NCBI GenBank assembly: GCA_947380295.1
Contig: CANCQK010000009.1
Span: forward strand, 37,460 to 101,459
Direction of reading: 5' to 3'
DNA length: 64,000 nt
Source of the DNA: Bdellovibrionales bacterium
GTDB taxonomy: Bacteria > Bdellovibrionota > UBA1018
The translations under genes were made by a program, and so were the position numbers. The notes beneath the pieces were generated by a model. It made no database searches. It was not told where the DNA came from and saw only the letters and a program-made list of their open reading frames with translations. This document shows, one piece after another, positions 204-37,094 of this stretch. How positions within the stretch are numbered: the first letter of the stretch is position 1; each line of letters starts with the position of its first letter.

Positions 204-1055
204 CTAGGATGACATGGCCTGCTTCAAGTACTCTACGAATGCCGGACGCTGTTCGAAGGGGAGTCCGTGGCCTGCGTTGGCGAATTCGACAAACCTCACG
301 GAGGGGTAGTTTGCAAAGATTTTGCGTTCACTCTCAAACTCTTCATGGGTCCAGACGAGACTGTTTTGGCCGCGTAGGACGTGGATCGGGATATTCCGCT
401 CGGCGAGTTCTTTGACCCACTCGCGGACGGAGGCGTCTCGTGCAGCAATGATGGTTTGAATTAAAGCACTGTGATCGAATGGGAAGTGGACGCGATGAGA
501 GGCGTCACGGACTGAGACCGCCATCAAATACTGCGCAATCGATGGGTCAGGGCAGTAAGTCTGCATGAACTCACGTGCGGCTTCGCGATTTTCAAAACTC
601 TCGGGAAGAACTCGGATAAATTGAGCCAGTCCTTCGCCTAGGCCGCCGCCTGCAACGCCTGAGAAACCGAGGTCAATCAGCACGATCCCTTGGATCCAGT
701 CTGGGCGAAGGTGAGCTGCGGCAACAGCGGTACGAACGCCCATGGAGTGACCCACGAGCCAAGTCGGATGAAAATGGAGTTCGTCCAAAGTCTCGACGAC
801 ATCCTTTCCGTAGTCGAGGGGAGTATAACTGGGCTGAATTCTTCCACCTGGAAGATGGGGGATCTGACTCTTTCCATGTCCGCGCTGGTCTGGGGCGAGG
901 ATTTCGAATTGGTCTTCTAGTCCCGCAGCGATGGGCCTCCAGAGAGCTCCGGTGCCGCCCATGCCGTGGAGAAACACGATCTTGTTAGATTGAGGATTTG
1001 GTACGACCTGAGGGTGGGACTGAGGGCGGTGCCAAAGTTGGTAAGCCAATTTCAT
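204..1055 (-). CDS. alpha/beta-fold hydrolase
   Basis: 283 aa. It has an HGMGG oxyanion motif and a GHSMG nucleophile elbow. It overlaps the uvrA stop by 4 bp (ATGA), so the two are probably co-transcribed. Confidence 0.8.
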   Translation of the reverse strand: MKLAYQLWHRPQSHPQVVPNPQSNKIVFLHGMGGTGALWRPIAAGLEDQFEILAPDQRGHGKSQIPHLPGGRIQPSYTPLDYGKDVVETLDELHFHPTWLVGHSMGVRTAVAAAHLRPDWIQGIVLIDLGFSGVAGGGLGEGLAQFIRVLPESFENREAAREFMQTYCPDPSIAQYLMAVSVRDASHRVHFPFDHSALIQTIIAARDASVREWVKELAERNIPIHVLRGQNSLVWTHEEFESERKIFANYPSVRFVEFANAGHGLPFEQRPAFVEYLKQAMSS

Positions 1056-3940
1056 GCTAAAATTCCTAAATGTTCACGGAGCATTTTTCCGGTGATCGAT
1101 TGAGGATGAGCCATCAATCGCTCGGGTGATCCCTCGCCGATCAGATCACCTCCATGAGTCCCGCCTCCTGGGCCCAGGTCAATGACCCAGTCCGCTTGAG
1201 CAATTACATCGAGGTGATGCTCGATCATCACAACGCTGTGTTTAGCCTCGACCAGATCATGAAAAACACGCATTAATTTTTTCACGTCCTCAAGATGGAG
1301 TCCTGTGGTTGGTTCATCAAAAATATAGAGTAGATTTTGAGCGGTCTTATCATCGAGGGTGGCAGCGATTTTCAGACGCTGAGATTCTCCGCCTGAGAGC
1401 GTCGCTCCAGACTGACCTAATTGGAGGTAGCCAAGTCCGACATCTCTGAGGGCTCTTAGCTTTTTGACTAGCGCGGGTTGATCATGAAAAAGTTCAAGTG
1501 CTTCGTCTACTGTAGCTTGTAGCACTTGGTCAACGTTCTTGCCTCGGTAGGTGACTTCGAGGACGTTCTTTTTAAATCGCTTACCCTCGCACTCTTCGCA
1601 GGGGAGTTTTACTTCTGCCATAAAGTGCATATCCAGGGTAATTTCTCCCTCACCTTTACAAACTGGGCATCTGCCTCCGTCCACATTGAAGGAGAAGAAC
1701 TGAGGCGTGAACCCACGTCTGAGCGCCATGCTTTGGTTGGCGAAAAGCTTTCGGATCTCATCCCAAGCCTTGAGATAAGTCGCAGGGTTAGATCGGGAGC
1801 TTCGTCCAATAGCGGACTGGTCGAGCAAGACGACCCCTCCCAGCTGTTCTGCTCCATAGAGTCGGTCGTACCGACCTACCGGTTCTGTGGTCTGGTAAAA
1901 AAGCTTTGATAAAGCTTGGAATAGGACCTTGTGGACGAGTGTACTTTTGCCCGAGCCCGATACACCAGTGACTACGACTAAACGATCGAGTGGGATCTGA
2001 ACTTCGATGTTTTTGAGGTTGTTTTCCTGGCAACCTAGGAGCTTAATCCACCGCTTTGGAGCTGGGCGTGGTTTGGTCTCGCGAATGAGTTTACTGGTCC
2101 CGTCGAGGTACCTGCCCGTGAGTGATTCAGGGTTTTGTGTGAGTTCCTTGGCTGTTCCCTGGGCCACGAGTTGGCCTCCGTGCCGACCTGCTCCAGGGCC
2201 AAGCTCAACCAGCCAGTCTGCGGCCTTCATCATTTCGAGGTCGTGCTCGACTACGACCACGGAGTTGCCTTGGTCTCGCAGTCTTTGAAGCACTCGAATG
2301 AGTCGAGCGGTATCTGCAGCGTGCAGACCAATCGAAGGTTCGTCCAGTACATAAAGAGTTCCGCAGAGGCCATTGCCGAGTTGGGTGGCAAGATTGATCC
2401 GTTGGAACTCGCCCCCTGAGAGGGTCTTGGTTTGTCTCCCGAGTGTGAGGTAACCTACTCCTACTTCTTGGAGGAAATGAAGGCGTCGTTCGACCTGATT
2501 GAAAATCTCGCTCGCGATTTTTCGCTCTTTTGCCGAGAGAGTCAGATTCTTGATCCAATCACTGGCCTCATCTACCGAGGAGTTCAAAACGTCTGCAATG
2601 GATTTGCCGCCGACTTGCACGGCGAGTGCTTCGGGTTTGAGGCGCGAACCGTTACATTCTGTGCAGAGAGTTTGGCTTTGATAGCGACGGATGAAGACGC
2701 GGATATGAAGCTTGTATTTCCATCGTTTGAGTTCTTCAAAGCATTCAATGATCCCTGGAAAAGTTGAATCATTGGGGTCGCCCTGCCAGAGGAGTTTTTT
2801 CTCCGAAGTCGTGAGATCTCGGTATCTTTTTGCGATTGAGATGCCGTGCCGCTCGGCGAATCGAAAAAGGTCTCGTTGCCAGTCTGCGTGCGAGGGCTTG
2901 GAAAGGGGGTCTATCGCTCCTTTGGCGATCGTTTTTCCAGGGTCGGGGACGATGAGGGATTCATCCAAATCTAGGGTGAAGCCGAAGCCGCTACATTTTG
3001 AGCAGGCTCCGACCGGACTATTAAATGAAAAAAGGTGGGGCTCTGGCAGGCGGTGTTCTCGGCCGCAGTGAGTGCAGGCATAGCCGGCTTGAAAGGTTTG
3101 GGACGCATTTTCAATGCCTGGGGTCAAATCTAAAAAACGGACTTTCCCATGTCCGATATTTAGAGCTTGTTGAATTGAGTCCAAGAGGCGGCCTCGGGCA
3201 TCTTCGTCTAGGGATTCCTGACTGATTTTAAGGCGATCGACCACCAAAAAAATCTCAGACGAAGGGTCTAGTTCGAGGAGGTGTCCAGGCGGCCTCTCGT
3301 CGAGATCCAGAACCTCTGGCTCGCCTTGCTTCGGCTGGATCAAAAGACGTTGGTAGCCTTGCTCTTTGAGTGTTTGAATCAGGGCTTCGGTTAATGCTTG
3401 GGTTTGACTCGGCTTGGCTTTGGCCTTTGTTTTTTTTGAGGTTTTGGCCTTCGTATCTTGGGGCTGCAATCCAAAGAGTGGCGCTAGGATATAAGCTTTT
3501 CGTTTGGGAATCCAAGTCTTAGCCCATTCTAGGATGCTTTGTGAGTTGACCGGTTGTACTGACTGTCTACAATTTAGACAGTGGGTCTGTCCGATTTTCG
3601 CAAAAAGGATTCGTAGGTAATCGACTAGTTCAGTTTGTGTTGCAACCGTGCTCCGCGAATTGAGAACCGAGTTTTTTTGCTCCAAGGCGATCGACGGCGG
3701 AATATTCTCGACTGAGTCTAAGTCAGGCTTCGGCATTTTCTCAAGGAATTGGCGGGTGTACGTCGATAGGCTCTCGACGTACCGTCTTTGTCCTTCGGCA
3801 TAAAGCGTATCGAAGGCGAGTGAGCTCTTTCCGCTTCCTGAAAGTCCGGTGATGACCGAAAGCTTTCGAAATGGAAATTCAACGGTAATTGCTTTCAAAT
3901 TGTTCTGTCGAACTCGGTTCAAACGGATGGATCGTTGCAT
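1052..3940 (-). CDS. uvrA: excinuclease ABC subunit UvrA
   Basis: 962 aa. The N-terminus reads ...LSVITGLSGSGKSSLAFDTLYAEGQRRYVESLSTYTRQFL. It has two ABC ATPase modules, a zinc-finger CxxC pair, and two LSGGE/Q signature motifs. Confidence 0.97.
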   Translation of the reverse strand: MQRSIRLNRVRQNNLKAITVEFPFRKLSVITGLSGSGKSSLAFDTLYAEGQRRYVESLSTYTRQFLEKMPKPDLDSVENIPPSIALEQKNSVLNSRSTVATQTELVDYLRILFAKIGQTHCLNCRQSVQPVNSQSILEWAKTWIPKRKAYILAPLFGLQPQDTKAKTSKKTKAKAKPSQTQALTEALIQTLKEQGYQRLLIQPKQGEPEVLDLDERPPGHLLELDPSSEIFLVVDRLKISQESLDEDARGRLLDSIQQALNIGHGKVRFLDLTPGIENASQTFQAGYACTHCGREHRLPEPHLFSFNSPVGACSKCSGFGFTLDLDESLIVPDPGKTIAKGAIDPLSKPSHADWQRDLFRFAERHGISIAKRYRDLTTSEKKLLWQGDPNDSTFPGIIECFEELKRWKYKLHIRVFIRRYQSQTLCTECNGSRLKPEALAVQVGGKSIADVLNSSVDEASDWIKNLTLSAKERKIASEIFNQVERRLHFLQEVGVGYLTLGRQTKTLSGGEFQRINLATQLGNGLCGTLYVLDEPSIGLHAADTARLIRVLQRLRDQGNSVVVVEHDLEMMKAADWLVELGPGAGRHGGQLVAQGTAKELTQNPESLTGRYLDGTSKLIRETKPRPAPKRWIKLLGCQENNLKNIEVQIPLDRLVVVTGVSGSGKSTLVHKVLFQALSKLFYQTTEPVGRYDRLYGAEQLGGVVLLDQSAIGRSSRSNPATYLKAWDEIRKLFANQSMALRRGFTPQFFSFNVDGGRCPVCKGEGEITLDMHFMAEVKLPCEECEGKRFKKNVLEVTYRGKNVDQVLQATVDEALELFHDQPALVKKLRALRDVGLGYLQLGQSGATLSGGESQRLKIAATLDDKTAQNLLYIFDEPTTGLHLEDVKKLMRVFHDLVEAKHSVVMIEHHLDVIAQADWVIDLGPGGGTHGGDLIGEGSPERLMAHPQSITGKMLREHLGILA

Positions 3941-6190: not shown

Positions 6191-7234
6191 GTGAGGGTTT
6201 CTTCTGTGAGCGCAGCAAATAGACAGTCTTTCAAAATGATTCAGGTAGATTACCCTGAACCCCACTTGGCAAGAACCCAGCAAATTCTAAAAAATCATCC
6301 AGAAGTCAAAAAGTTAATCGGAAACACTCCTTCGACCTCCTTGTATATTTTGGGGATTGTAGCGCTTCAAATTGCCTGCGCAGTGTTTTTTGCAGATCAA
6401 CCCTGGTGGTTGATTCTGCTCGGGACCTACACGGTTGGAGCGGTTGCTAATCATGCCCTTTGGGTTTTGATTCATGAATGCACACACAATCTCGTCTTCA
6501 AGGGCGATCTAGCTAATAGTTTGATGCAGATCTTTGCTAATCTGCCGATTATTTTTCCTTCTGCAATTTCGTTCCGGATTTTTCACATTAAGCACCACCT
6601 TTATCAAGGTGAGTTGGACCGCGACGCGGATTTGCCAAGGCCATTCGAAGTTCAGTCGGTGGGGAACTCGACCCTTAAAAAGTCCCTGTGGTATCTTTGT
6701 TATTTTGTGTCTCAGCTGATTCGAGTTCCCTACTTGAAGGGGATTGAGTTAGTGAATCGCTGGGTTGCTTTGAACTACGTGGTTGAGCTCTCTTTCTTGT
6801 TTGCAATGACTTACTTTTTTGGCTGGGGTGCTTTGGCTTACTTGATTGGTTCAAGTGTATTTTCAATCGGCTTGCATCCCGTGGGTGCTCGTTGGATTCA
6901 AGAGCATTACGTTCTTTTTCAAAAGCAGGAAACTTACTCTTACTATGGACCTCTCAATCGCTTAGCATTCAACGTGGGGTATCATAACGAGCATCACGAC
7001 ATGATGCGGGTCCCATGGTCCCGACTTCCCCAGTTAAAGGCGTTAGCGCCAGAGATGTATGATACTCTTTTTTATCATACATCTTGGTCTAAGCTCTTGT
7101 TTCAGTTCTTAACTGATCCAAAATTAGGGCTTTTCAGCCGTGTGACTCGCTTACCAGCAACGCGATCGAAGGAAACATCTAAGCCCGCGCAGAGATCAGC
7201 GCCATCTGAGCGAGTCCTTCAGCCTCAACTCTAG
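6191..7234 (+). CDS. sphingolipid (dihydroceramide) delta-4 desaturase, DEGS1-like
   Basis: The N-terminal YPEPH...IL..HPEVKKL segment matches the Lipid_DES region. The three histidine boxes HECTHN, HIKHHLYQG and HNEHHD align with human DES1 (HEIAHN, HMDHHRYLG, HNEHHD). The start is a GTG at 6191; an ATG at 6236 is the alternative. Confidence 0.85.
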   Translation: MRVSSVSAANRQSFKMIQVDYPEPHLARTQQILKNHPEVKKLIGNTPSTSLYILGIVALQIACAVFFADQPWWLILLGTYTVGAVANHALWVLIHECTHNLVFKGDLANSLMQIFANLPIIFPSAISFRIFHIKHHLYQGELDRDADLPRPFEVQSVGNSTLKKSLWYLCYFVSQLIRVPYLKGIELVNRWVALNYVVELSFLFAMTYFFGWGALAYLIGSSVFSIGLHPVGARWIQEHYVLFQKQETYSYYGPLNRLAFNVGYHNEHHDMMRVPWSRLPQLKALAPEMYDTLFYHTSWSKLLFQFLTDPKLGLFSRVTRLPATRSKETSKPAQRSAPSERVLQPQL

Positions 7235-7277
7235 CGAGTCGCTGGCGAAGCAGCGAGTGATCTGGTATTGATGCGAT

Positions 7278-9200
7278 GTGATTCACATCCAAAATATCAG
7301 TAAGCAGTACGGTTCTAAGGTTCTTTTAGAGGGAGCGAGCGCTCAATTAGGGCATCGCTCCCGTGTTGCTTTAATCGGTCCAAATGGAGCCGGTAAAAGT
7401 ACTTTGATCCGGATGCTTTTAAGCCAGGAAGCACCAGACGACGGCAAAATTACCCGAGCTTCCCACCTAGCGATCGGCTACCTGGCTCAGGATCTCCCTC
7501 GGCTGAGCGGAAAAACAGTGCTGTCCGAAGTGATGCGGATGGACGGGCGGCGAGAAGAGCTTTTTGAGACAAAAGAAGAGCTTGAATTAGCCTTATCCGA
7601 AAATCCCCACGATGCAGAGGTGTTAGAACGCTATGGCCGAATCCTAGAGGAAGTAGAGCACCTGGATGAAGCCCGTTTAGAAGCTCGAGCCAAGCAAATT
7701 TTAAGCGGAATTGGATTCCAAGAACGGGACTATGATCGCGAGCTGACTGAGTTTAGCGGCGGCTGGTTGATGCGTGTCGCGCTTGCGCGAATTCTACTCA
7801 TGGACCCTGATCTTCTACTTTTAGATGAACCCACCAATCACCTAGATTTAGAGTCTCTGCTTTGGCTCGAAAATTTTCTGAGGCGCTTTCGGGGCGCTCT
7901 GCTCATGATCAGTCATGATCGAGCGTTTCTTAATCGTCTCGTCGAGGAGGTTTGGGAAATTGACCAGAGCCAGTTGATTTCTTATCGGGGGGACCTCGAT
8001 TCGTATCGTGCGCAGAAGGCCGAGCGTTTGGCTGTGTTGGAAGCACAGTACGAAGGCCAGCAGTCTAAAATCGCCGAAATTGAGAAGTTTGTCGCTCGCT
8101 TTGGAGCAAAAGCAACGAAAGCGCGCCAGGCACAGAGCCGGTTAAAACAGCTCGATAAAATGGACCTCATCGAGCTGCCTGAGGCAAGGTCGTCGATTCG
8201 ATTTCGGTTTCCGCCTGCACCTGACAGTGGACGAGAAGTCATCAGTCTTCAAGGGTTGGGAATGAACTATGGGGATCATCTGATTTTCAAGGACGTCAAT
8301 TGGACCCTTCAGAGGGGTTCGAGAGTGGCTATTGTGGGCGTCAACGGAGCAGGCAAGACTACGCTTCTTAAGCTCCTGACCGGAAAGGCCAGTCCCACTC
8401 AGGGGCGAGTCAAGCTTGGACATGGAGTTCAGGTGGGTTATTACGCCCAGCTTCAGGCAGAGAGTTTGGATTTAAAAAAGACAATCCTTCAAGAATTAGA
8501 AGCGGTGGCTCCCGAAATGCCGATGAGTCAAGTTCGCGGGATCGCGGGCGCATTTTTATTTTCGGGTGATCAAGTTGAGAAGAAATGTGGTGTGCTGTCG
8601 GGAGGCGAAAAAGCTCGTGTGGCCTTAGCTAAGCTCCTGCTATCCCCCTCAAACTTTCTGATTCTCGATGAGCCCACCAATCACCTGGATATCGAGTCCA
8701 AAGAAATCTTGCTCGAAGCCCTCAGAAACTATAGTGGTACTCTCTGTATTGTCTCTCATGATCGGGAGTTTATGGGGCCTTTGGTGGATTCGGTTCTTGA
8801 GCTAGTGCCGAGTTCCACGCGTGCACAGGGGACCCAAATCATTCAGCTTTTGGGAGCCTATGATGATTACCTGCGAAAGAAGCAGGAGCAGATCCTAGCT
8901 GCCGAACCTGCTGAGTCCCGATCCACGAAGATTGCCCCCGCTCCGGATTCTAAAGAAAATAAGGGTCCATCAAATAATCAGATTAAGAGCTGGGAGCGAG
9001 AAATGCTCAAAATCGAAGGAGAGATTTCGAAACTCGAGCTTCGCCAGCAAGATCTTCATCAAGTTCTTGGGGATGTGGCTACCTACCAAGATAAAGCCCG
9101 ATCTTTTCAGTTAATTGAGGAGCAAAAGGGATTAGAGCAAAGTTTGACTGAAAAGCTTGCACGCTGGGAAGAATTGAGTCTGCTTCTAGAGAAGGCCTGA
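7278..9200 (+). CDS. ABC-F family ATPase (Uup/EttA-like, tandem ABC domains, no TM)
   Basis: It has two Walker A motifs (GPNGAGKST and GVNGAGKTT), two signature motifs (FSGGWLMRVALA and LSGGEKARVALA), and a C-terminal coiled coil as in Uup. Confidence 0.9.
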   Translation: MIHIQNISKQYGSKVLLEGASAQLGHRSRVALIGPNGAGKSTLIRMLLSQEAPDDGKITRASHLAIGYLAQDLPRLSGKTVLSEVMRMDGRREELFETKEELELALSENPHDAEVLERYGRILEEVEHLDEARLEARAKQILSGIGFQERDYDRELTEFSGGWLMRVALARILLMDPDLLLLDEPTNHLDLESLLWLENFLRRFRGALLMISHDRAFLNRLVEEVWEIDQSQLISYRGDLDSYRAQKAERLAVLEAQYEGQQSKIAEIEKFVARFGAKATKARQAQSRLKQLDKMDLIELPEARSSIRFRFPPAPDSGREVISLQGLGMNYGDHLIFKDVNWTLQRGSRVAIVGVNGAGKTTLLKLLTGKASPTQGRVKLGHGVQVGYYAQLQAESLDLKKTILQELEAVAPEMPMSQVRGIAGAFLFSGDQVEKKCGVLSGGEKARVALAKLLLSPSNFLILDEPTNHLDIESKEILLEALRNYSGTLCIVSHDREFMGPLVDSVLELVPSSTRAQGTQIIQLLGAYDDYLRKKQEQILAAEPAESRSTKIAPAPDSKENKGPSNNQIKSWEREMLKIEGEISKLELRQQDLHQVLGDVATYQDKARSFQLIEEQKGLEQSLTEKLARWEELSLLLEKA

Positions 9201-9274
9201 CAAAAACCTAACGCTTTTTTTATTTATTGCAGAATCCTTTTAGGGGAAGATGGATGAAAAGAGCGAGGTAAAGT

Positions 9275-10492
9275 ATGACTTTCTTGGTCTACTTGTGTTT
9301 TTTGCTATGGGTCACGGTTGTGGGATTCACGATCTGGGGAACCCTGTTAGCGTTGAAGTTGATCAAAAAAGATCAAACTGAGGGTGATTTAAGGTTTGAG
9401 AGCGGTGTGACTTACCGACCTCCAGTGTCGATTCTCAAGCCACTTAAAAATCTTGAGAATGGGGTCAGTGAGTGTGTTGAGAGTTTTTTTCGGCTCGACT
9501 ACCCAAAGTACGAGCTGATTTTTTGCTTTACGAGTGAGGCAGACCCCGGGTACCCCCTCATTCAAGAGTTCATTTGCAACTATCCCAGTGTGGATGCCAA
9601 GGTTTTGGTCGGTGAGGGGAAAATCGGTTTTAATCCAAAAATAGATAACTTAATCAAAGGGTACCAGCAGGCTAAGTATGATTGGGTCCTGATTAGTGAT
9701 GGGAATGTTCTCGCGAAGCCTCACTATTTGAGCAAACTCGTTACTGCGATCAGTCCAGGGGTGGGGTTGATTACATCAAACATCAAGGGGTTGAATCCGA
9801 AGAGTTTGGGTGGTCGATTGGAAAGTCTTATTTTAAATACCCACTTCACTCGTTGGAATGCAGTGCTGAATGCTTTTAGATTTCCAGCCATCTCAGGCAA
9901 AGCGATGCTTTTTCAAAAGTCTGTGGCGAGTCGATTCGGTGGTTTAGCGAGTCTTGCGAATTACTTGGCTGAGGATTTTATTTTTGGGGAAAAGGTGAGA
10001 GCGTTAGGGATGCGAGTGGTTTTAACCACTGAAATGGTCCATCAAAACATTGGGGATCAATCCGTTCATTCTTATTGGGATCGCCACCTTCGTTGGGGAC
10101 GAATTCGGAAGTCACTTTCGCCATTCGGTTTTATAGTTGAAATATTGATAAATTCTTTTATTTCTGGTTTACTGGGAGCATGGGCGCTCAATCATCGATT
10201 TGGCCTTTCTCCACTCATTTTTCTCTCGATTCATCTCTGCATGTGGCTGATTCTCGATCTGGTTTTAGTTCAGGCAATCGAGGGGGGGATTTTCATTGGA
10301 GATCCCCTGATTTGGCTTGCACGAGAACTCTCAGTCTTTCCTCAGTGGGTTGCCGTCGGGACGAGCAATGGAGTCAATTGGCGAGGTCAAAGCTTCCGAA
10401 TTGGCAGCCAAACTCAACTTGCGCCCCTAGAGTACGGAGATCTCAGTGAAGGATTTGACGCAAGCCTTTCTTTGGGGGGCAGCCACCAGTAG
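9275..10492 (+). CDS. ceramide glucosyltransferase-like GT21 glycosyltransferase (UGCG homolog)
   Basis: VSILKPLKNLENG..FFRLDYPKYELIFC...VDAKVLVGEGKIGFNPKIDNL...KYDWVLISDGNVL aligns closely with human UGCG ([61 protein letters not shown]). It also has an AEDF motif, a RW..R motif and an N-terminal TM. Confidence 0.85.
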   Translation: MTFLVYLCFLLWVTVVGFTIWGTLLALKLIKKDQTEGDLRFESGVTYRPPVSILKPLKNLENGVSECVESFFRLDYPKYELIFCFTSEADPGYPLIQEFICNYPSVDAKVLVGEGKIGFNPKIDNLIKGYQQAKYDWVLISDGNVLAKPHYLSKLVTAISPGVGLITSNIKGLNPKSLGGRLESLILNTHFTRWNAVLNAFRFPAISGKAMLFQKSVASRFGGLASLANYLAEDFIFGEKVRALGMRVVLTTEMVHQNIGDQSVHSYWDRHLRWGRIRKSLSPFGFIVEILINSFISGLLGAWALNHRFGLSPLIFLSIHLCMWLILDLVLVQAIEGGIFIGDPLIWLARELSVFPQWVAVGTSNGVNWRGQSFRIGSQTQLAPLEYGDLSEGFDASLSLGGSHQ

Positions 10493-11789
10493 TCATCAAA
10501 TTGAGGGCTACAATGACAAAAATGATTGGTGGGCTTGGGAAAATCAGGGAAAAATTGAAACGGGTGAGCGATCAGGTCCTTGTACTGATCATTTGAATCG
10601 GTTTCGAGAGGACCTTCGACTTGCAGCTGATTTGGGTCTGAATTCTTATCGTTTTTCAATAGAGTGGTCACGGCTTGAGCCTCAAGAGGGTCAATGGAGT
10701 GATGAGGCTTTTGACTGGTATTTTGAACTCATTGAAGAATGCGAGCGACTCGGGCTTGAACCTATGCTGACTCTTCATCATTTTACCTTGCCTCTTTGGA
10801 TGGCAGAGCAGGGTGGCTTTGCTTGGGAGCGATCGCCTGAGCTCTTCGGTAAAATGACTCGAAAAGTCGTAGAGCGGCTCGGCTCTAAAGTCGCACTTTG
10901 GTGCACGCTCAATGAACCGATGGTTTTGACTGTGGGTTCGTACTTGGGCAAGTTCATGCCTCCTGCTATTTATGATCCTGAGAAGGCTCGAATGGCACTT
11001 TACCACATGCTCAAGTCTCATGTGATTGCCTATGATCTGATTCATCGTGAGATCCCTGCGCGAAAAGGACGCTGGAAAGACAATCCCGTTCAAGTCGGCA
11101 TCGCTCATAATATGATCGACTTTACGGTCACACGATCCGGGAGCATCATTGAGACTTGGTTGGCTGAACAGCTCCATCAGTTTTACAATATGACTTGGTT
11201 GGACGCGATTACCGGTAGAGCCCAGCGTTTTAGGTTCCCGTTGCTTCTGACGCAGGCCCCCATAGTGAGTGAGGCGCTGGGAAGAGTGACCGTCGACTAC
11301 TTGGGTATTAATTATTATACTCGTGCTCAGGTTGAGTTTGCTCCCAAATGGAATGGTTTGCCTGTGAATATCGGCTTTGCCAAGCCAGGAGAGCCCGCGT
11401 CCGATTTGGGTTGGTCCATTCATCCGCTGGGATTCCAGAAGATGTTGAAAATTGCAGGGCAATATCGCCTGCCGGTTTACGTGACTGAAAACGGGATTGC
11501 CGATCGAACAGATGCCTTAAGACCCGGGTATCTGAAGGATCATCTGCGGTCCATGATCAAGGCGCAGCAGGAGGGGGTTGATCTACGAGGGTATTACTAT
11601 TGGTCTCTTCTAGATAATTTTGAATGGATTAAAGGCTTTGGACCTCGATTTGGACTATTTCAGGTGGATTATCAAAATTTTGCAAGAACGAAAACCCATA
11701 GCGCTGAGCTGTATCAAAAGCTCATTGAAGCTCATCGACGTCAAGGCGGCGATCCGAGTTCGCTCGGTGTTCTGCTCGAATCTTTGTAA
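10446..11789 (+). CDS. GH1 beta-glucosidase
   Basis: It has FLWGAATSSHQIEGY at the N-terminus, the acid/base TLNEP motif and the nucleophile YVTENG motif. It overlaps the 3' end of the GT21 gene by 47 nt. Confidence 0.92.
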   Translation: MKDLTQAFLWGAATSSHQIEGYNDKNDWWAWENQGKIETGERSGPCTDHLNRFREDLRLAADLGLNSYRFSIEWSRLEPQEGQWSDEAFDWYFELIEECERLGLEPMLTLHHFTLPLWMAEQGGFAWERSPELFGKMTRKVVERLGSKVALWCTLNEPMVLTVGSYLGKFMPPAIYDPEKARMALYHMLKSHVIAYDLIHREIPARKGRWKDNPVQVGIAHNMIDFTVTRSGSIIETWLAEQLHQFYNMTWLDAITGRAQRFRFPLLLTQAPIVSEALGRVTVDYLGINYYTRAQVEFAPKWNGLPVNIGFAKPGEPASDLGWSIHPLGFQKMLKIAGQYRLPVYVTENGIADRTDALRPGYLKDHLRSMIKAQQEGVDLRGYYYWSLLDNFEWIKGFGPRFGLFQVDYQNFARTKTHSAELYQKLIEAHRRQGGDPSSLGVLLESL

Positions 11790-11887
11790 AGAATTGAGTT
11801 TGAGCCCGATTGGGTCAAATCTCCAAAGTGAATCAACTGTGCGGCATTCAGATTTACAAAAAATCAATTGGGGAACATACTTTGAAT

Positions 11888-12820
11888 GTCATGAGTGGGA
11901 ACAGTAAAAAAATCGGACTACTTGGTGGGTTGGGGTGCATTCTTTTTGTGGGTTGCGTCGCCAGGGTTTATGCTGGGAACCCAGAAGAGCTGAAAAAGTC
12001 GCTTCATTACCGAAAAGTTTTGGAGCAGATTTGGGCCCATTGGCCGCCTCAGTTTGAAGAGATTAAACAAAAGGAGGCTCGACAAATTCCCGGTGTTCAT
12101 GCTCGTGCGTGGGAAACCTCTGGAGATCCCGACTATATTGGACTTCAAAAGAAAATGCTGATTCAAGCTCCCATCGAACGAGTCGATGAAATCGTCTGTG
12201 ACTTCGAGCATTATTCCGAACTTTTTCCAGAATTTAAGGACGTAAAGGTAATTAATCGGGGGAAAAGTGAATGGGTCACGCACTGGGTTCGGCCGATCCC
12301 ATTTCCCTTTGTTCCCGATGTCTACTATGAAACCGCTTACCAAACAGACCGATCGCAGTCGGATCGAAAAGTTTTTAAAATTAAACTGAAAGAAAGTAAT
12401 CGAGTTTGGGTGAGTGACGACCTCTTGGTTTTGGATCGTAGGGGGCCTTCGCAAACCGAGTTTAGCGTTCTGAGTTTTTTCGAAGCTGATTGGGGTCCTG
12501 TTCGAATTCTAGGGATGTCCAAAATTTGGAAAGATAGCATTGAAGGATCTATTCTTTCGGACCTCTCTTTTAAACTGAAGGCCGAGCACCCCGACTGGTC
12601 ACCCGAGAAGATTAAAACTGAAAGAGTTAAATTGGTTCCCGACCATTATGTGGATGATGTTTTTGACCAAAGGCAGATCTTTGCGGTTGAAAAACTCATT
12701 CCTAGCCTAAAACCGAATGCCGTCGTGCCTCAGGTTGAGCACCCACCTTCGCCAAGTCCAAGTCCAACTCCACGCCCTTCGGCGGTGCCGTCTTCTGATT
12801 CGCCAAGCCCGTCCCCTTGA
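11888..12820 (+). CDS. secreted hypothetical protein with a Pro/Ser-rich C-terminal tail
   Basis: A signal peptide MSGNSKKIGLLGGLGCILFVGCVARVYA is present if the internal Met is used as the start. The C-terminus is HPPSPSPSPTPRPSAVPSSDSPSPSP. I recognise no domain, and a lipid-binding fold is only speculation. Confidence 0.45.
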   Translation, partial: VMSGNSKKIGLLGGLGCILFVGCVARVYAGNPEELKKSLHYRKVLEQIWAHWPPQFEEIKQKEARQIPGVHARAWETSGDPDYIGLQKKMLIQAPIERVDEIVCDFEHYSELFPEFKDVKVINRGKSEWVTHWVRPIPFPFVPDVYYETAYQTDRSQSDRKVFKIKLKESNRVWVSDDLLVLDRRGPSQTEFSVLSFFEADWGPVRILGMSKIWKDSIEGSILSDLSFKLKAEHPDWSPEKIKTERVKLVPDHYVDDVFDQRQIFAVEKLIPSLKPNAVVPQVEHPPSPSPSPTPRPSAVPSSDSPSPSP

Positions 12821-12884
12821 CTAATTGCGAAAGATTTGCAATAAGCTCTTGCAAGTCATTTGCATTTTAATCAAAGGAATCTGT

Positions 12885-15377
12885 ATGCGGCTCTTGTCGA
12901 AGTTCTCCCGATCAACGGTGCTGGTTGTTTTATCTATTCTTCTGGGTGGTGGCTTTGAAAATCGCGCCCACGCAACAGTGGATGGTACGGTTTCAGGGGT
13001 TGTCACTGCGCCAGGAAAAGAAGGCACTCAACTCACTGTTAAGCTTACTAATTTGAGCGGTCGCGAAGTGACTGAAACTCAAGTTCAAGCAGGTCAGGAA
13101 TATCAGTTTTTCCCAGTTAAATTGGGAGATTATGAGTTGACGCTGTGTTCGGGTTCGTTCTGTTCCGAACCTCAGTTCGTTCACGTAGCCTCCGGTAGTG
13201 ATATTCATGAGAATCTATCTTTAGAGCCTGCTCCTGCGGCTTCGCCGAGCCCTCAGGGTGCCATGGTTTTGAATGTTCGTGCTAAGAGAAAGCTCGTTCA
13301 AAATATTTCAACGGGGACTCAGTTTGAGCTGAATCAAAACGAAGTGAAGCAGCTTCCTCAAGGGAGCGAGGCCAGTCTTCCAAAATTGATTGCTTCCACC
13401 ACTGCAGGGGTGGTTCCGGGATCTTTTGGTCATCTTTATTTTCGCGGTAATCATGCAACGATTCAATATCAGCTCGACGGAATTCAAATGCCTGACTCAC
13501 CGTCCAGTTCGTTTGGTCAAACCTTTAGTCCGCGCAATATTGACCGGATGGAAGTCATTACGGGTGGGATTCCTGCTGAGTTCGGACAGCGCCTTAGCGC
13601 GGTGGTGAATGTCGTGACTAAGTCAGGTCCTGAAAAGCCTGAAGGGGAGATGGAGCTGAATTACGGTTCCTACAATACCTTTTCTCCTCACATTATGTAT
13701 GGTGGATCTAACGAACGGGGCGACTTAAAGTATTTTTTTAGTTTGAACTACAATCAAACCGACCGCGGGATTGATACTCCCAATCCGGAGTCTCTTGATA
13801 ACCAAAGACAGGGTGGATCTGAATCAGTACATAATCGATCCACGGGGAACGGTGAGTTTGTTAAGCTAGATTGGCAGCTGAGCAATATCGATAAACTCAG
13901 CCTGATCTTGAATCACTCTTATAGCTTTTACCAGATTCCTAACTACCCAACTTCGTTCGATCCTGCGACCAATAGCGCAGCCAGGAATGGGTATTTCAGT
14001 ACAGATACGAGCTATGTTGATAATTTTGGGAATTCTCCTGAAGCCCATGGGAGTCACACTCATCCTCTTTTTATTTACTCCCCGGCAGATAACACTCAGG
14101 CAGAGAGAAATGCTTATGCTCAATTCATTTGGAAACATACGATCGATAGTCGATCCTATTTTCAGCTAGCGCCGTACTATAAATATTCTTCGATTGTGAA
14201 TACGGCTGATTCTGCAGGGGATTTCTATGAAAGAACGATGCCAAATCCGGTGACGGATGCAGACCCAGTTTCATTCTCTCAGAACCGCCACTCGAACAGT
14301 TTAGGGCTCAAAGGAGACTATTCTTTTCGTCTTCAGGATGATCATTTACTGAAAACTGGATTTCAACTGCAGCAAACCGAGGTGGCAGGGTCCTACCAGT
14401 TTCAGAAGTATAACAAGTCACCCGTATCTAATTCTGATCCGATGTCAGGAACCTTCGAGAGTATCTACCTTCAAGATGATTTCACGATTCATCGTGAGAA
14501 AGGGACAGTAGCAAATCACTTGGTGCTGAATGCCGGGATTCGATTTGATGCAGCTCAGTTTAGCTTCTCTGGAGCTAGCCCGACGGATTACGCGTTTCAG
14601 CCTAGAATTGGTTTGAACTACATGTTGGATGAGTCCACTCGTTTTCATGTTTTTTATGGGAGATTGTTTCAGCCTGCTCCCGTCGAAAATCTAAGGAGTT
14701 CGTTTCGTGGAGATGAATATAAGGATGTGCCTTACGATATTAAGGCGGAGAAAGCCAACTTTTATGAGGCCGGTGTCGCTCGCCAGATTTTTGGTCAACA
14801 AGTGGCTGGCTTGAACGTTTTCTATAAAAACGGGGTGAACTTCCTGGATGAAGGACAGTTGCTGAGGACTCCAATTGCACAGCCGTTCAATTTTGCTGAA
14901 GGATATGTCTACGGGGCTGAGTTCAGTTTAAAAGGGCAGATCGACTCAGATTGGTCTAACTACATTAATTATTCCTACTTAATTGCCAAGGCGAGAAGCA
15001 TTAGCGGGGGCGTTTGGGCTAACGATCACGGTTCAAGTGATGATTATCAAAATATGGACCACTCTCAGATGCACACCGCCAACGCAGGTCTGACTTACTC
15101 GAAAAAGGGCTTTTGGTGGACGGGGCAAGCCCTCTTTGGAAGTGGCCTCTGGACTGGGGAGACGAATGACGTCCCTCTGCAGTCCCACCTCACCTTTGAT
15201 ACGACGGTGGGCTATGACTTTGCTGAGAAGCTCTCCGGGTGGGGTAAATGGAAAGCCTCGGTCGATCTCCTGAATATCCTGGATAACCGATATCCGATCA
15301 CCATTGCTAATAACTTCAATGGTTCTCGATACGCCGCCGGAAGACAGGTTTTTGTTCGATTAACTCGAGCGTTTTAA
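12885..15377 (+). CDS. TonB-dependent outer-membrane receptor with an N-terminal carboxypeptidase-regulatory-like domain
   Basis: It has a signal peptide, a CarboxypepD_reg-like beta-sandwich (TVDGTVSGVVT...GDYELTL), a plug region and a long beta-barrel. The C-terminus ends ...FVRLTRAF with a terminal Phe. Confidence 0.85.
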   Translation: MRLLSKFSRSTVLVVLSILLGGGFENRAHATVDGTVSGVVTAPGKEGTQLTVKLTNLSGREVTETQVQAGQEYQFFPVKLGDYELTLCSGSFCSEPQFVHVASGSDIHENLSLEPAPAASPSPQGAMVLNVRAKRKLVQNISTGTQFELNQNEVKQLPQGSEASLPKLIASTTAGVVPGSFGHLYFRGNHATIQYQLDGIQMPDSPSSSFGQTFSPRNIDRMEVITGGIPAEFGQRLSAVVNVVTKSGPEKPEGEMELNYGSYNTFSPHIMYGGSNERGDLKYFFSLNYNQTDRGIDTPNPESLDNQRQGGSESVHNRSTGNGEFVKLDWQLSNIDKLSLILNHSYSFYQIPNYPTSFDPATNSAARNGYFSTDTSYVDNFGNSPEAHGSHTHPLFIYSPADNTQAERNAYAQFIWKHTIDSRSYFQLAPYYKYSSIVNTADSAGDFYERTMPNPVTDADPVSFSQNRHSNSLGLKGDYSFRLQDDHLLKTGFQLQQTEVAGSYQFQKYNKSPVSNSDPMSGTFESIYLQDDFTIHREKGTVANHLVLNAGIRFDAAQFSFSGASPTDYAFQPRIGLNYMLDESTRFHVFYGRLFQPAPVENLRSSFRGDEYKDVPYDIKAEKANFYEAGVARQIFGQQVAGLNVFYKNGVNFLDEGQLLRTPIAQPFNFAEGYVYGAEFSLKGQIDSDWSNYINYSYLIAKARSISGGVWANDHGSSDDYQNMDHSQMHTANAGLTYSKKGFWWTGQALFGSGLWTGETNDVPLQSHLTFDTTVGYDFAEKLSGWGKWKASVDLLNILDNRYPITIANNFNGSRYAAGRQVFVRLTRAF

Positions 15378-16554: not shown

Positions 16555-18135
16555 ATGAAATTAGCTACATTCTTCAATAGGATGACTTGTGTTATTGCTT
16601 GGGCCACAATCGTACTGGCTTGTAGCCCTAGTGGACCAGTCAGGCGCGCCAGTCAGGTTGATTCTCGGCTTAATCATCTCTCTCAGTCTTCTTATGTTAG
16701 AGTTCAATCCTCTCATTTGCCTCGCGGCGGAGATTTCGAACGAATTGAGTCTACGCAGGGTCTCGAAGGTTGGCTCGGGCCTCAGGCGGCAAAGTCAGTA
16801 CAGGGGCTTTTTTTAAATATCTCGCCTCCTGGCGCAGCTCTCGGGGCTGTTTCTGCTTCCCCTTCTCGGCAAGATCCTGATTATTACTACCATTGGGTTC
16901 GAGATTCGTCTCTCGTTATGGGAGTGGTTCTGGACTTGTATGAAGGGTCTTCTAGTGTGCAAGATCGAGATTTTATTTTAAAAACCATGGAACAATACGT
17001 GGATTTCTCTCGACTCAATCAGATCACTCCAAATCTGTCGGGAGGAGTGGGGGAGCCCAAGTATAATGTAAATGGAACGGCATTTACCGGAGAATGGGGA
17101 AGGCCTCAGAACGATGGTCCGGCTCTCCGTGCCGTGACTTTGATTCGCTTCGCAAAGCTTCTCTTAGCAGCAGGGAATCAAGAGAGCTACGTTCGTTCTA
17201 AGCTTTACGACGGTTTTATTCCAAGTGAGTCCTTAATTAAGACGGACCTCGAGTTCGTTTCCCATCATTGGCGGGATAGTTGTTTTGACCTTTGGGAAGA
17301 TACGAAGGGGATTCACTTTTACGCTCGTATGGTTCAGCGTCGTGCCTTGGTTGATGGCGCCGAGCTGGCTGACTTTTTAGGAGATGGTCGTGCTGCGGTC
17401 TGGTACCGGTCTCAGGCGCGAGCCATCGAAGTAGAGATTCTGAAGCATTGGGATTCGGAGCGAGGCTATTTTGTTGAGACTCTGAACTGGGATGGTGGAA
17501 ACTCGAATAAGGCTAGCGGATTAGATGTGGCAGTGGTTCTTGCTGTTCTTCACGGGAGGACGTCAGATGGGTTTTTATCCCCTGGGAACGATCTCGTGGT
17601 GGCGTCGGCTGAAAAGCTCCGTGAGGTCTTCAAAAACAGCTACGCGGTCAATCTGAATTCGAGTATGGGTGTTGCGATTGGTCGCTATCCCGAGGATTCA
17701 TACGACGGTTTGGCAGTGGGGGGGCGTCCTGGGAATCCTTGGGTGCTTTCTACTTTTGCCTTTGCCGAGCTGAATTATCGAATTGCTCAAGAGTGGGGCG
17801 CTCAGGGGAGGGTGGATGTCACTGGGTTGAATCTCCCTTATCTTCGCGCGGTTTTGGGTGACTCTGCTTTAGGTAAGCGTTGGCTTAGGAGTGGAGGATA
17901 TTTGGAGCGTGGTCAGGCAGATTTTGATCTCCTGATGAATCGAATTCGCGAAGTAGGGGATTCCTACATGGTGCGAGTGAAATACCATACGCCACGAGAT
18001 GGGGCCCTGGCTGAGCAGTTTAATCGGGATACGGGGTTTATGCAGGGCGCGCGCGATTTGGCTTGGAGCTACGCGAGTTTCATCACGGCTTTAGGTGAAA
18101 GAAGTCGCCTTCTGAATCACTCGTTAAATCGTTAA
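16555..18135 (+). CDS. secreted GH15 glucoamylase-like glycoside hydrolase
   Basis: It has a signal peptide and the FDLWED catalytic motif (the DLWEE type), followed by an (alpha/alpha)6 fold region. Confidence 0.8.
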   Translation: MKLATFFNRMTCVIAWATIVLACSPSGPVRRASQVDSRLNHLSQSSYVRVQSSHLPRGGDFERIESTQGLEGWLGPQAAKSVQGLFLNISPPGAALGAVSASPSRQDPDYYYHWVRDSSLVMGVVLDLYEGSSSVQDRDFILKTMEQYVDFSRLNQITPNLSGGVGEPKYNVNGTAFTGEWGRPQNDGPALRAVTLIRFAKLLLAAGNQESYVRSKLYDGFIPSESLIKTDLEFVSHHWRDSCFDLWEDTKGIHFYARMVQRRALVDGAELADFLGDGRAAVWYRSQARAIEVEILKHWDSERGYFVETLNWDGGNSNKASGLDVAVVLAVLHGRTSDGFLSPGNDLVVASAEKLREVFKNSYAVNLNSSMGVAIGRYPEDSYDGLAVGGRPGNPWVLSTFAFAELNYRIAQEWGAQGRVDVTGLNLPYLRAVLGDSALGKRWLRSGGYLERGQADFDLLMNRIREVGDSYMVRVKYHTPRDGALAEQFNRDTGFMQGARDLAWSYASFITALGERSRLLNHSLNR

Positions 18136-25532: not shown

Positions 25533-26198
25533 CTATCCACATAGCAATTGGTGTTGACTTCCTGTTTCCACGATGCTGGTTACAAAAACCGGATATACCG
25601 ATCTTCGCAGAGCCGTCATCTCCGCAGGCGTAATTTCCCGAAGAGCTTTCGGTACTGGATTTAAATTCATTGCAGCATTCAGGTCTCGGTCCATCGTGAG
25701 GCCACACTCACACCTGTAGGTCCGTTCGGATAAGCTCAGAGCTTCCTTCACGTCTCCGCAGCTACTGCATTTTTTAGAGGATGGGAAAAAGCGTGGATGA
25801 ATCATGACTGCAGCCCCTCGCCACTCAGCTTTATAGGTCAGTTGCCTACGAAACTCTCCCAGGCCCACATAGAATGAGTCGTGAGATTTACCCTTCTTTT
25901 TGAATCTGGGTTTGCCGCCCAGCTTTTTAAAAAATCGCTTCCAAGCACCTTGTAAGTCCAAAAAGGGCTGCTGAGATGCATACTTGGTGACCTCGTAGGT
26001 CCAGGGAAACTCAGATTCCTTGATCGCGTTGAATTGCTTTTTGAGAGCCATACCCGAGGGCTTCTGGCCAGACTTGAACTGCTGATCCCACTCCGCCAAT
26101 CCCCAATTCCATGCAAAACGAGCCACACCACAGGCCTTTTTGAAGTAGGTCATCTGGGTGTTGTTGGCTTTCAATTTGATTTTGTGGGCGATTTGCAT
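25533..26198 (-). mobile_element. tnpB: IS200/IS605-family tnpB (OrfB) with an in-frame internal deletion; degenerate, and predicted nuclease-dead
   Basis: The N-terminus (KIKLKANNTQ...ACGVARFAWNWGLAEW...GKPRFKKKGKSHDSFYV) matches the TnpB N-terminus up to the FPKFKKKG block. It then joins directly to the C-terminus (GLGEFRRQLTYKAEW...SSKKCSSCG...YRCECGLTMDRDLNAAMNL), which is the zinc finger plus RuvC-III. The roughly 170 aa covering RuvC-I/II are absent. Confidence 0.75.
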
Positions 26199-26512
26199 AA
26201 AGAGTTTTGCTTGGTCAGTTAAAGTCTCAACCTGCGAAAAACTAACTCCGCAAAAAACTAAAAGCAAGCGCCTCTCAGGAGACGTCCCACTTAATTTGCG
26301 ACTTTTTTGCGAAGTGTCCGACTTTCGGTCGCTCCATCACAATTGCTCTCTTTTGGACCGCTTTATATGGCGCTGGGTTAACATAATATTCGTCGATCTT
26401 AGGTCCCAACCAGAGCTCTGCTCAAAACTTACTCATTTTGATCAATTTTAGATAGGTTTAGATAGGTTTTATAGGAACTGTTTCTAACCCCAAAAGCATT
26501 TTCTGAAGCGCT

Positions 26513-28662: not shown

Positions 28663-28783
28663 GCTTGGCTTTCGGAGGGTGCAACCGATGTGCCGGTAGA
28701 TTTCTGAGTTGGTTTTAATGCTTTGGCTCTTCCCTTGCTGTTCAAGAACTTAGAATCAAAATAGAAACAGGAGATCTCGAGGT

Positions 28784-36140: not shown

Positions 36141-37094
36141 TCACCACTTAAAGAGACGCCATCTAGATGCTTTCTGGATCAAGCGAACTACTTCTGAATG
36201 ACCGTGCAGTCTCGCAAGCTCTAATGCATTCTTGCCTTCCTGATCAACTCTACCAGTTTCAGCACCTCGGGAGATCAACAGACTCACTATTGATGCCATC
36301 CCACCCTGGGCAGCTGCCATCAGCGGAGTATAGCCACGCTGATCTGCCTGATTTTCGGCGGCGCCAAAATTTAGAAGCATCTTTGCGGTCGCCTCTTGCC
36401 CACGAGAGATCGACATCAAGAGTGGACTTCGGCCCGAACTATCCGTTTGATTAACCAGGGCCCCTGCCTCGATGAGTCGCTGTGCTAATTGAGTGTGTCC
36501 GTGAGCTACTGCCTCAATTAAGAGTGAAGTCCCATAAGTCAGATCGCCAATATGAAACTCAGATTTCTTTGCTTCTAAAAAATAAAAAAGACTTTTAGCA
36601 TCTCCTGCCGCAGTCAACGAGGCAAGTAGGTTAGGCCCCACAACCAACCCCTCCGTTAGAGTCCCCCAATGTGCGGGATAATCAGCTCCCAAAACATGCC
36701 CTTTGCAGCCACCCCTAGAGGTATCGCACGACTCAATATAGGTAATATCCATTGCAGCACTAAAAATTGGTTCTGCCTGATACCAGCCATCGCCACTTCC
36801 GTCGCGCCTCATGCTATTTACTATTTTTAAATCTTGATTACATCGACGCTCTTGACCCGAACCACAGCAAATTCTCCGAGTTCCAGTAACTACAACGGTA
36901 TGTCCCGCAATACAAACACCTGATGTATCAGTATTTTTGCAATAACTTAAAATTAACGGCTTCTTTTTCGAGAGTAAATGCTTGATCTCTGATTCAAGCA
37001 ATCTTTCACGTGTCATAGGACCAGTTGCTCTTTTGACTTGACTCAGTAGGGGGTCTGAAATATCAAAAATTTTGACTTGATACTCTGGTAGCAC
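36141..37094 (-). CDS. ankyrin-repeat protein with a Cys-rich N-terminal region
   Basis: The C-terminal half carries at least four ANK repeats (...GRSPLLMSISRGQEATAKMLLNFGA..., ...GYTPLMAAAQGGMASIVSLLISRGA..., ...GKNALELARLHGHSEVVRLI). The N-terminal roughly 170 aa are Cys-rich and unassigned. Confidence 0.7.
   Translation of the reverse strand: MLPEYQVKIFDISDPLLSQVKRATGPMTRERLLESEIKHLLSKKKPLILSYCKNTDTSGVCIAGHTVVVTGTRRICCGSGQERRCNQDLKIVNSMRRDGSGDGWYQAEPIFSAAMDITYIESCDTSRGGCKGHVLGADYPAHWGTLTEGLVVGPNLLASLTAAGDAKSLFYFLEAKKSEFHIGDLTYGTSLLIEAVAHGHTQLAQRLIEAGALVNQTDSSGRSPLLMSISRGQEATAKMLLNFGAAENQADQRGYTPLMAAAQGGMASIVSLLISRGAETGRVDQEGKNALELARLHGHSEVVRLIQKASRWRLFKW

Follow-up and report, generated by a model that had tools for sequence, protein, structure and literature searches.

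The Pgt proteins of Agrobacterium tumefaciens and Mesorhizobium loti are the sole characterised bacterial enzymes of glycosyltransferase family 21 (GT21). They are processive and form di- and triglycosyl-diacylglycerol in phosphate deprivation; diacylglycerol is the preferred acceptor, ceramide is accepted as well, and a Pho box has been predicted for them (PMC3972451, PMC8231724). In marine bacteria the phospholipase C gene plcP is often found directly upstream of such glycosyltransferase genes (PMC4796936), and Caulobacter makes a glycosphingolipid solely under phosphate starvation, from ceramide that is produced constitutively (PMC6445935). Sphingolipids are also made by the Bacteriovoracaceae, of which Bacteriovorax stolpii produces sphingophosphonolipids and possesses a serine palmitoyltransferase (Spt) that has been characterised (PMC6148460, PMC8942020). 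The stretch of DNA described here (64,000 nucleotides (nt) of contig CANCQK010000009.1, hereafter the window) carries a GT21 gene that overlaps a gene for a glycoside hydrolase of family 1 (GH1) and, a short distance upstream, a gene encoding a homologue of the eukaryotic DEGS desaturases. The original prediction, made from the sequence, had regarded the three genes as a eukaryote-like glycosphingolipid set. The reading which we favour, with somewhat better than even confidence, is that the GT21-GH1 pair is a phosphate-starvation glycolipid cassette relocated beside an independent sphingoid-base modifying enzyme, the two having separate lipid functions.

The source is an uncultured Bacteriovoracaceae bacterium. 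In a scan covering one genome per species the closest record is a metagenome-assembled genome of this family, whose GT21 has 96% amino-acid identity, in agreement with the predatory bacterium that had been supposed, and the gene order of the window recurs on public contigs. The scan, made with a GT21 alignment, was used to survey 80 loci by tblastn, 68 being Bdellovibrionota-like and 12 belonging to other phyla. Among the Bdellovibrionota-like loci a PHP-domain gene lies directly upstream of GT21 in 47 of 63, and GH1 follows GT21 directly in 38 of the 60 which were testable. Genes of the pst/phoU type occur within 10 kb of GT21 in 10/68 and pstS directly follows GH1 in 7/51, whereas a desaturase gene within 10 kb was found in a single locus out of 68. 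The conserved unit is therefore PHP-GT21-GH1 and not desaturase-GT21-GH1. The adjacency of GT21 and GH1, often with overlapping reading frames, extends across Bdellovibrionota families and is seen in no fewer than three gene contexts. In the 12 loci outside this group (Acidobacteriota, Planctomycetota, Zixibacteria and Rhizobiales) GT21 never adjoins a PHP or GH1 gene, and pst genes are near it in four of them. The most complete arrangement is that of Bdellovibrio sp. ZAP7 (L012:9253-19183, the same as L041), where PHP, GT21, GH1, pstS, pstC, pstA, pstB, phoU, phoB and phoR follow each other on one strand. Comparable arrays of PHP, GT21, GH1 and pst/pho genes are also listed for L016, L022, L034, L039, L046 and L050. 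Some genomes have two GT21 paralogues (L047/L048, L036/L064, L043/L066, L072/L087, L034/L075 and L035/L071), and in most of these pairs GH1 adjoins one copy only.

In most loci the PHP gene is preceded by a triple direct repeat that has a period of 11 nt and the consensus TCCTAAC-n4-TCCTAAC-n4-TCCTGAC, which is also the repeat preceding the ten-gene array of L012. The distance from its first letter to the PHP start codon is typically 50-66 nt, and a CCGATAAT element follows it near the start. A loose regular expression had been uninformative for this motif, and a 29-nt weight matrix was derived from the PHP promoters of 45 Bdellovibrionota loci. At a score of at least 17 the matrix gave 66 matches in 1.27 Mb, 22 of them independent of the training sites, against 2.3 in shuffled sequence. 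One independent match lies 42 nt before pstS. The operator also precedes three genes for OlsB-like N-acyltransferases (PF13444, E 1e-22 to 1e-24), which are either divergent from the PHP gene or placed directly after GH1 (L074:8322-9226 and L070:8180-9065 on the minus strand, L017:2614-3449 on the plus strand). Proteins of PF13444 are of the ornithine/aminolipid synthesis type, so that the regulon appears to include another pathway for lipids without phosphorus; of the 80 loci, 8 have an OlsB-like gene no more than 10 kb from GT21. Moreover, the operator stands before a gene for a PAP2 lipid phosphatase (L024:16601-17221) and one of the type I phosphodiesterase/alkaline-phosphatase family (L063:12471-13831, minus strand), and directly before GT21 in loci without a PHP gene, including one from Zixibacteria and one from Planctomycetota. 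Repeats which are spaced by a helical turn, take the place of a -35 element and stand ahead of genes that serve the uptake or scavenging of phosphate or the synthesis of phosphorus-free lipids look like a PhoB operator, and the TCCTAAC triple repeat is proposed as a candidate Pho-box consensus for the Bdellovibrionota. Its half-site differs from that of enterobacteria, which is CTGTCAT.

In the window the best match to the matrix on either strand of the 64 kb is at 9184-9212 on the plus strand (TTCTAGA-gaag-GCCTGAC-aaaa-ACCTAAC, score 18.4). This candidate Pho-box-like operator overlaps the stop codon of the gene preceding GT21, which encodes an ABC-F ATPase, in a gap of 74 nt, and ends 63 nt before the ATG of GT21. 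As 7% of shuffled windows reach the same score somewhere in 64 kb, the match is weak and it is its position before GT21, rather than the score, that makes it notable. Two of the half-sites, at the 11-nt spacing, are kept in three loci (L013, L015 and L004) of what will be called the window clade, which consists of the window, L013, L014, L015 and the metagenome loci L004 and L011. No comparable operator precedes the desaturase gene, either in the matrix scan of the window or in the comparison of the window clade, and scans for promoters and terminators gave background levels only. Since the operator is before GT21 and none is before the desaturase gene, phosphate control of GT21-GH1 in the window clade is plausible and phosphate control of the desaturase is unlikely.

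The relocation can be followed in the relatives. Those with desaturases 67-71% identical to that of the window keep the neighbours of this gene and have no GT21-GH1 pair at that spot. In the relative with the 71% identical desaturase, found on a 1.1-Mb contig, unrelated genes come after those for the desaturase and ABC-F, and the GT21-GH1 pair is about 715 kb away, where it adjoins genes for a PHO4 phosphate transporter, a PhoU-like protein and a PhoB/PhoR-like two-component pair and has a metallophosphoesterase gene downstream. The window clade has lost the PHP gene and gained, downstream of GH1, a gene for a START-fold protein.

The GT21 gene of the window (9275-10492, plus strand) encodes a membrane glycosyltransferase of 405 amino acids (aa) from the UGCG/Pgt/HpnI family. 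It matches PF13506 (Glyco_transf_21) with an E-value of 2.9e-44 and 151 bits (cut-off 21.7), and its residues 47-376 align with residues 49-382 of human ceramide glucosyltransferase (UGCG, 26qf) at E 1.5e-58. This alignment spans the whole catalytic and membrane region, and both proteins have an N-terminal membrane anchor. D142, E233-D234 and R270-x-x-R273-W274 are invariant in an alignment of 40 sequences (A1) and line up with the same D, ED and RxxRW motifs in human UGCG, in keeping with the acidic residues and (Q/R)xxRW motif that characterise inverting GT-A transferases. However, H193 of the human enzyme faces F in the printed alignment. The core is 30% identical to human UGCG and 33% to a Rhizobiales GT21, and these identities do not separate a ceramide from a diacylglycerol acceptor. 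No paper on a UGCG structure giving the ceramide-contact residues was found in the literature. A neighbour-joining tree places the window GT21, on a long branch, inside the radiation of Bdellovibrionota GT21 proteins and leaves animal UGCG out of this radiation; all the trees were computed from trimmed alignments without support values and give coarse placement only. The gene evolves faster than its neighbours, the protein being 64% identical to that of L014 and 58% to that of L004 against 80-86% for the desaturase, the ABC-F protein and a methyltransferase. The window-clade GT21 also bears a C-terminal extension, which creates an overlap of 47 nt with GH1.

The GH1 gene (10446-11789, plus strand) encodes a retaining beta-glycosidase of 447 aa, with no signal peptide, that matches PF00232 (E 3.6e-81, 273 bits) and has both catalytic glutamates, the acid/base in TLNEP and the nucleophile in VTENG. 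The overlap with GT21 (10446-10492) is real: the GTG start codon has a GGAG 6 nt ahead of it, the Pfam match already sets in at residue 4, and relatives show the same overlap. Among solved structures the closest relative is the beta-glucosidase BGPh of Pyrococcus horikoshii (1vff, E 2.8e-90, 306 bits; the next scores 260 bits), a membrane-bound enzyme which prefers long-alkyl glucosides. Human GBA3, which hydrolyses glucosylceramide, and plant SFR2, a galactolipid:galactolipid galactosyltransferase which makes oligogalactolipids by transglycosylation, are retaining GH1 enzymes too and, like BGPh and the window protein, have the two catalytic glutamates. No paper characterising a GT21-GH1 pair was found.

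The START/SRPBCC-fold protein is encoded directly after the pair (11891-12820, plus strand, within a 336-aa open reading frame (ORF) at 11810-12820). The probable start is the ATG at 11891, and the protein has a hydrophobic N-terminus (signal or anchor) and a Pro/Ser-rich tail. It gave a weak match to PF03364 (Polyketide_cyc) and has just seven homologues among 5.8 billion proteins. The gene is confined to the window clade, where it always comes after GT21-GH1, following GH1 in L014, L015 and L004. Structure prediction from the single sequence was unusable (predicted local distance difference test, pLDDT, 39), and an AlphaFold model from an alignment of eight sequences reached a pLDDT of 74.9 and a predicted template-modelling score (pTM) of 0.70. 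The top Foldseek matches of this model are START lipid-transfer domains (ACOT11, STARD10, StAR, MLN64 and CERT, E 1e-8 to 1e-6, TM 0.4-0.56). The modelled fold supports a lipid-related role of the block, although it does not identify the lipid.

Taken with the Pgt enzymes, these data suggest the following scheme. The ancestral operon PHP-GT21-GH1, behind a Pho-box-like operator and often running into pstSCAB-phoU-phoBR, would swap phosphorus-containing lipids for glycolipids and be a counterpart of the alphaproteobacterial plcP-pgt module; it is read as a phosphate-starvation module because the unit is conserved under this operator and beside the pst operon. In the window clade the pair would have been relocated with loss of the phosphoesterase, retention of a weaker operator and gain of the START-fold lipid-binding protein downstream. 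GT21 and GH1 would then be a translationally coupled pair at the cytoplasmic face of the inner membrane, where GT21 would move a hexose from a UDP-sugar onto diacylglycerol and/or ceramide to give a beta-hexosyl lipid and GH1 would trim this glycolipid or extend it by transglycosylation. By analogy with Pgt, a GT21 which makes glycosyl-diacylglycerol under phosphate limitation and also accepts ceramide, the product is most likely a phosphate-sparing beta-hexosyl membrane lipid. The window pair is likely to make a glycolipid, which need not be glucosylceramide of the eukaryotic type. The DEGS-type enzyme would, most likely, separately modify C4 of the sphingoid base in the ceramide lipids of the Bacteriovoracaceae.

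The parallel with the Pgt/plcP operons, whose bacterial GT21 enzymes make beta-glycosyl membrane lipids that stand in for phosphorus-containing ones at low phosphate, consists of the GT21 and of a phosphoesterase gene directly upstream in many genomes; the Pho box predicted for Pgt may have its equivalent in the candidate operator. The differences are that the Bdellovibrionota phosphoesterase is a PHP-domain protein and not PlcP (the window has neither), that the operon includes a GH1, a feature for which Pgt offers no described precedent, and that the window GT21 is only 33% identical to a Rhizobiales GT21, the Bdellovibrionota proteins being known from sequence alone. If the acceptor were ceramide, the locus would share the logic of a phosphate-starvation glycosphingolipid with GSL-2 (Sgt1/Sgt2) of Caulobacter crescentus, at the level of the system and not of sequence. 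In GSL-2, however, the first sugar is hexuronic acid, and a GH1 partner has not been described.

Several observations weigh against a relocated phosphate-starvation cassette. Besides the weak score of the window operator, the site is degenerate in L014 and in the relatives at 58-64%, and 44 of the 66 matrix matches are the training sites themselves, which match by construction. PhoB binding is deduced solely from the architecture of the repeat and the genes that follow it. No PHP or PlcP-like gene and no pst/pho gene is present anywhere in the 64-kb window. Moreover, a synthase that is co-expressed with a hydrolase of its product would run a futile cycle unless GH1 is a transglycosidase or an editor. 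With regard to ceramide, tblastn with a manually entered Spt query gave no match in 1.46 Mb (the window and related loci), and no class I/II aminotransferase-fold gene is present among the window ORFs of at least 150 aa. As no sphingoid-base gene was seen in the 1.46 Mb, ceramide production by the source organism is taken from the literature on the family.

The desaturase homologue is encoded at 6191-7234 (plus strand), the longest ORF having 347 aa; the gene caller places the start at 6206 and there is an ATG at 6236, one of these being the likely start. The protein matches PF08557 (Lipid_DES, residues 22-47, E 4.3e-9, 36.1 bits, cut-off 23) and PF00487 (FA_desaturase, E 3e-27). Its three His boxes (HECTH, HIKHH and HNEHHD) fit the pattern HX3H, HX2HH, HX2HH. 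It resembles human DEGS1 and DEGS2 in the N-terminal Lipid_DES segment, the three boxes (HNEHHD is identical), the length and the collinearity. Identity to human DEGS1, the sequence of which was entered manually, is about 36% over 300 aa, with four gaps and the His boxes aligned, and no cytochrome b5 partner is evident for the window desaturase. In contrast, homologues from Bdellovibrionia, Anaeromyxobacter and Gemmatimonadota share 55-84% identity with it (those with named sources 55-60%). At E <=1e-30 an exhaustive search returned bacterial DEGS homologues that fall into 410 clusters when grouped at 50% identity. A coarse neighbour-joining tree of 150 representative relatives, in which one manually entered human sequence represents the eukaryotes, puts the window protein in a tight bacterial clade apart from the clade containing the human enzyme; a cluster look-up of the 150 representatives gave no taxonomy for the groups between these two clades.

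The surroundings of this gene give no functional clue. Close relatives keep a divergent methyltransferase gene and usually also the ABC-F gene beside it, in other phyla it is a stand-alone gene, and in two other lineages the neighbours are uninformative. In Anaeromyxobacter (L008 and L009:9108-11014) the DEGS homologue is the divergent neighbour of an FA_hydroxylase (PF04116) gene. This family includes fungal sphingolipid C4-hydroxylases and fatty-acid 2-hydroxylases, and the two genes may be a small sphingolipid-tailoring pair. The window desaturase gene is read as an independently inherited stand-alone gene without such an operator, and its product most likely modifies C4 of the sphingoid base by introducing a double bond or a hydroxyl group. 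The choice between a 4,5-double bond and a 4-hydroxyl product is not readable from the window sequence. Sphingophosphonolipids of B. stolpii have phytosphingosine-type bases, which would fit a hydroxylase. The DEGS family comprises desaturases and C4-hydroxylases, DEGS2 being among the latter (PMC11765627), so a d18:1-like base is not implied. No paper characterising a bacterial DEGS homologue was found.

With these results the original prediction can be judged in its parts. The three genes are present at the positions it gave and belong to the families it named, the profile searches that it called for (PF08557, PF00487, PF13506 and PF00232) having all given matches. The DEGS1-type desaturase with an exact HNEHHD box, the UGCG-type GT21, the GH1 with NEP and TENG and the 47-nt overlap were all borne out. 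The generic desaturase or cellulose-synthase-like GT2 enzyme, which it had named as a refuting outcome, is excluded. The UGCG motifs that it quoted are present, except that the window reads LKPLKN and not LKPLKG. The genes are not consecutive as it had stated, since the ABC-F gene (7278-9200) separates the desaturase from GT21. The combination had been called undescribed, which is consistent with the literature found; such names are nevertheless already attached to bacterial homologues by annotation pipelines, and JGI calls many of the thousands of bacterial desaturase homologues "sphingolipid delta-4 desaturase".

The alternative which survives best is the one originally proposed, that desaturase, GT21 and GH1 make up one eukaryote-type glucosylceramide pathway with C4 desaturation, glucosylation and turnover by GH1. 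All three proteins match the eukaryotic DEGS, UGCG and GBA3-type GH1 families, the Bacteriovoracaceae are sphingolipid producers (PMC6148460, PMC8942020), and the cassette has been moved next to the desaturase in the window clade. This clade has lost the phosphoesterase that would be needed to free diacylglycerol, while ceramide would be available as a free biosynthetic intermediate. The fast-evolving, long-branch GT21 is compatible with a change of acceptor, Pgt takes ceramide (PMC3972451), and the structural neighbours of the START-fold protein include the ceramide carrier CERT, at the level of fold only. However, the linkage of desaturase and GT21 occurs in one small clade (1/68 loci) with a housekeeping gene in between, and elsewhere the desaturase and GT21-GH1 each keep their own context. 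The operator stands before GT21 and not before the desaturase, characterised bacterial GT21 enzymes favour diacylglycerol, and the 30% and 33% identities do not discriminate. Moreover, the family includes DEGS2-type C4-hydroxylases (PMC11765627), and no sphingoid-base synthesis gene was seen in the window or the related loci (1.46 Mb, manually entered Spt query). The families had been recognised correctly. The original interpretation is weakened in three parts, as the three genes are not a conserved set, the conserved unit PHP-GT21-GH1 points to phosphate-starvation lipid remodelling and a recent transfer from eukaryotes is unsupported. The one-pathway reading is only partly supported and is regarded as doubtful.

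An intermediate form, in which the Pho-regulon GT21 of the window clade has switched its acceptor to ceramide and four neighbouring genes, those for the DEGS-type enzyme, the UGCG-type synthase, a GH1 acting on the glycolipid and a START-fold carrier that would be exported, form a bacterial counterpart of the eukaryotic glucosylceramide toolkit, is put forward tentatively and with less confidence than the relocated cassette.

Far less probable is that GT21 is an HpnI-type hopanoid enzyme, or another GT2-like enzyme unrelated to membrane lipids, that GH1 serves the catabolism of prey sugars and that their adjacency is meaningless. The hopanoid glucosamine glycosyltransferase HpnI (TIGR03472) is the best NCBIfam model for GT21, with 202.2 bits for the window protein and 244 bits for the Bdellovibrio-type copy, and the canonical BGL model (TIGR03356) matches GH1 with 298.9 bits, but these scores are below the equivalog cut-offs of 310 and 478.5, and no hopanoid gene was found in the window. 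The adjacency is kept in 38 of 60 loci with at least three different surroundings and under a common operator which also precedes phosphorus-free-lipid and phosphate-scavenging genes, and the best solved relative of GH1 (1vff) is membrane-bound. A recent acquisition from a eukaryote such as a protist host or prey, which had also been suggested, is the least probable of all, for despite the full-length collinear similarity to human DEGS1 and UGCG and the presence of animal UGCG among the 120 listed GT21 matches, near the bottom of the list, the three genes, at 0.45-0.49, are in line with the window (0.484) in GC content and in GC content at third codon positions, GT21 is surrounded in the tree by dozens of Bdellovibrionota sequences and animal UGCG falls outside of these, bacterial homologues share 55-84% identity with the desaturase and the human enzyme about 36%, and the flanking genes are syntenic across relatives.

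The relocated cassette is part of a row of six genes on the plus strand of the window between 6.1 and 15.4 kb, namely those for the desaturase, ABC-F, GT21, GH1, the START-fold protein and a TonB-receptor-like protein. The ABC-F ATPase has 640 aa and two ABC_tran domains together with ABC_tran_Xtn and ABC_tran_CTD; it scores 428.8 bits with the NCBIfam model for ribosomal-protection-like ABC-F proteins (cut-off 380), and its gene stays beside the desaturase gene in relatives without GT21-GH1 at that spot. It is an Uup/EttA-like translation factor, that is, an intervening housekeeping gene outside the lipid system. The TonB-dependent-receptor-like outer-membrane protein (12825-15377, plus strand; Plug E 6e-6, TonB-dependent siderophore receptor model E 5e-22) has its gene in the same place in relatives without GT21-GH1 and probably belongs to the conserved backbone, not being specific to the cassette. 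Elsewhere in the window a UvrA-like protein of 962 aa (1052-3940, minus strand) has UvrA DNA-binding and interaction domains with weak ABC signatures, and the position of its gene is conserved in L004 and L011. A GH15 gene is found downstream of the cassette (16555-18135), and another, GH15/trehalase-like, is divergent from a GT20 trehalose-6-phosphate-synthase-like gene (27145-30574); GH15 genes are likewise found after phoR in L012 and after YebC in L011. A 244-aa ORF (25533-26267, minus strand) with the IS605 OrfB helix-turn-helix and a Cas12f1-like TNB domain looks like a remnant given its length, full-length TnpB having roughly 400 aa. The window also encodes, in this predatory bacterium, a 317-aa ankyrin-repeat protein (36141-37094, minus strand, Ank_2 E 3e-20), a repeat type mainly of eukaryotes.

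Replacement of phospholipids by glycolipids in phosphate stress is known in alphaproteobacteria, SAR11 and Caulobacter and, to our knowledge, has not been described for the predatory Bdellovibrionota. The PHP-GT21-GH1 operon and its operator appear to be undescribed in predatory bacteria, and bacterial DEGS enzymes appear to be unstudied. The function of a bacterial DEGS enzyme would reveal the route by which unsaturated or 4-hydroxylated sphingoid bases arise in bacteria. Should GT21 act on ceramide, two sphingolipid enzymes of eukaryotic type would be linked at one locus of a single bacterium, and if the switch to ceramide is true, beta-glucosylceramide on a C4-modified base would be made at low phosphate and delivered to the outer membrane. 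The synthase would then be the first of UGCG type to make glucosylceramide in a bacterium and the desaturase homologue the first DEGS enzyme with demonstrated bacterial function, which would bear on whether eukaryotes inherited UGCG and DEGS enzymes from such bacteria. For the Bdellovibrionota the analysis yields a conserved PHP-GT21-GH1 operon, a candidate Pho box for the phylum and a built-in glycosidase, for editing or transglycosylation, which would be new for modules of this kind.

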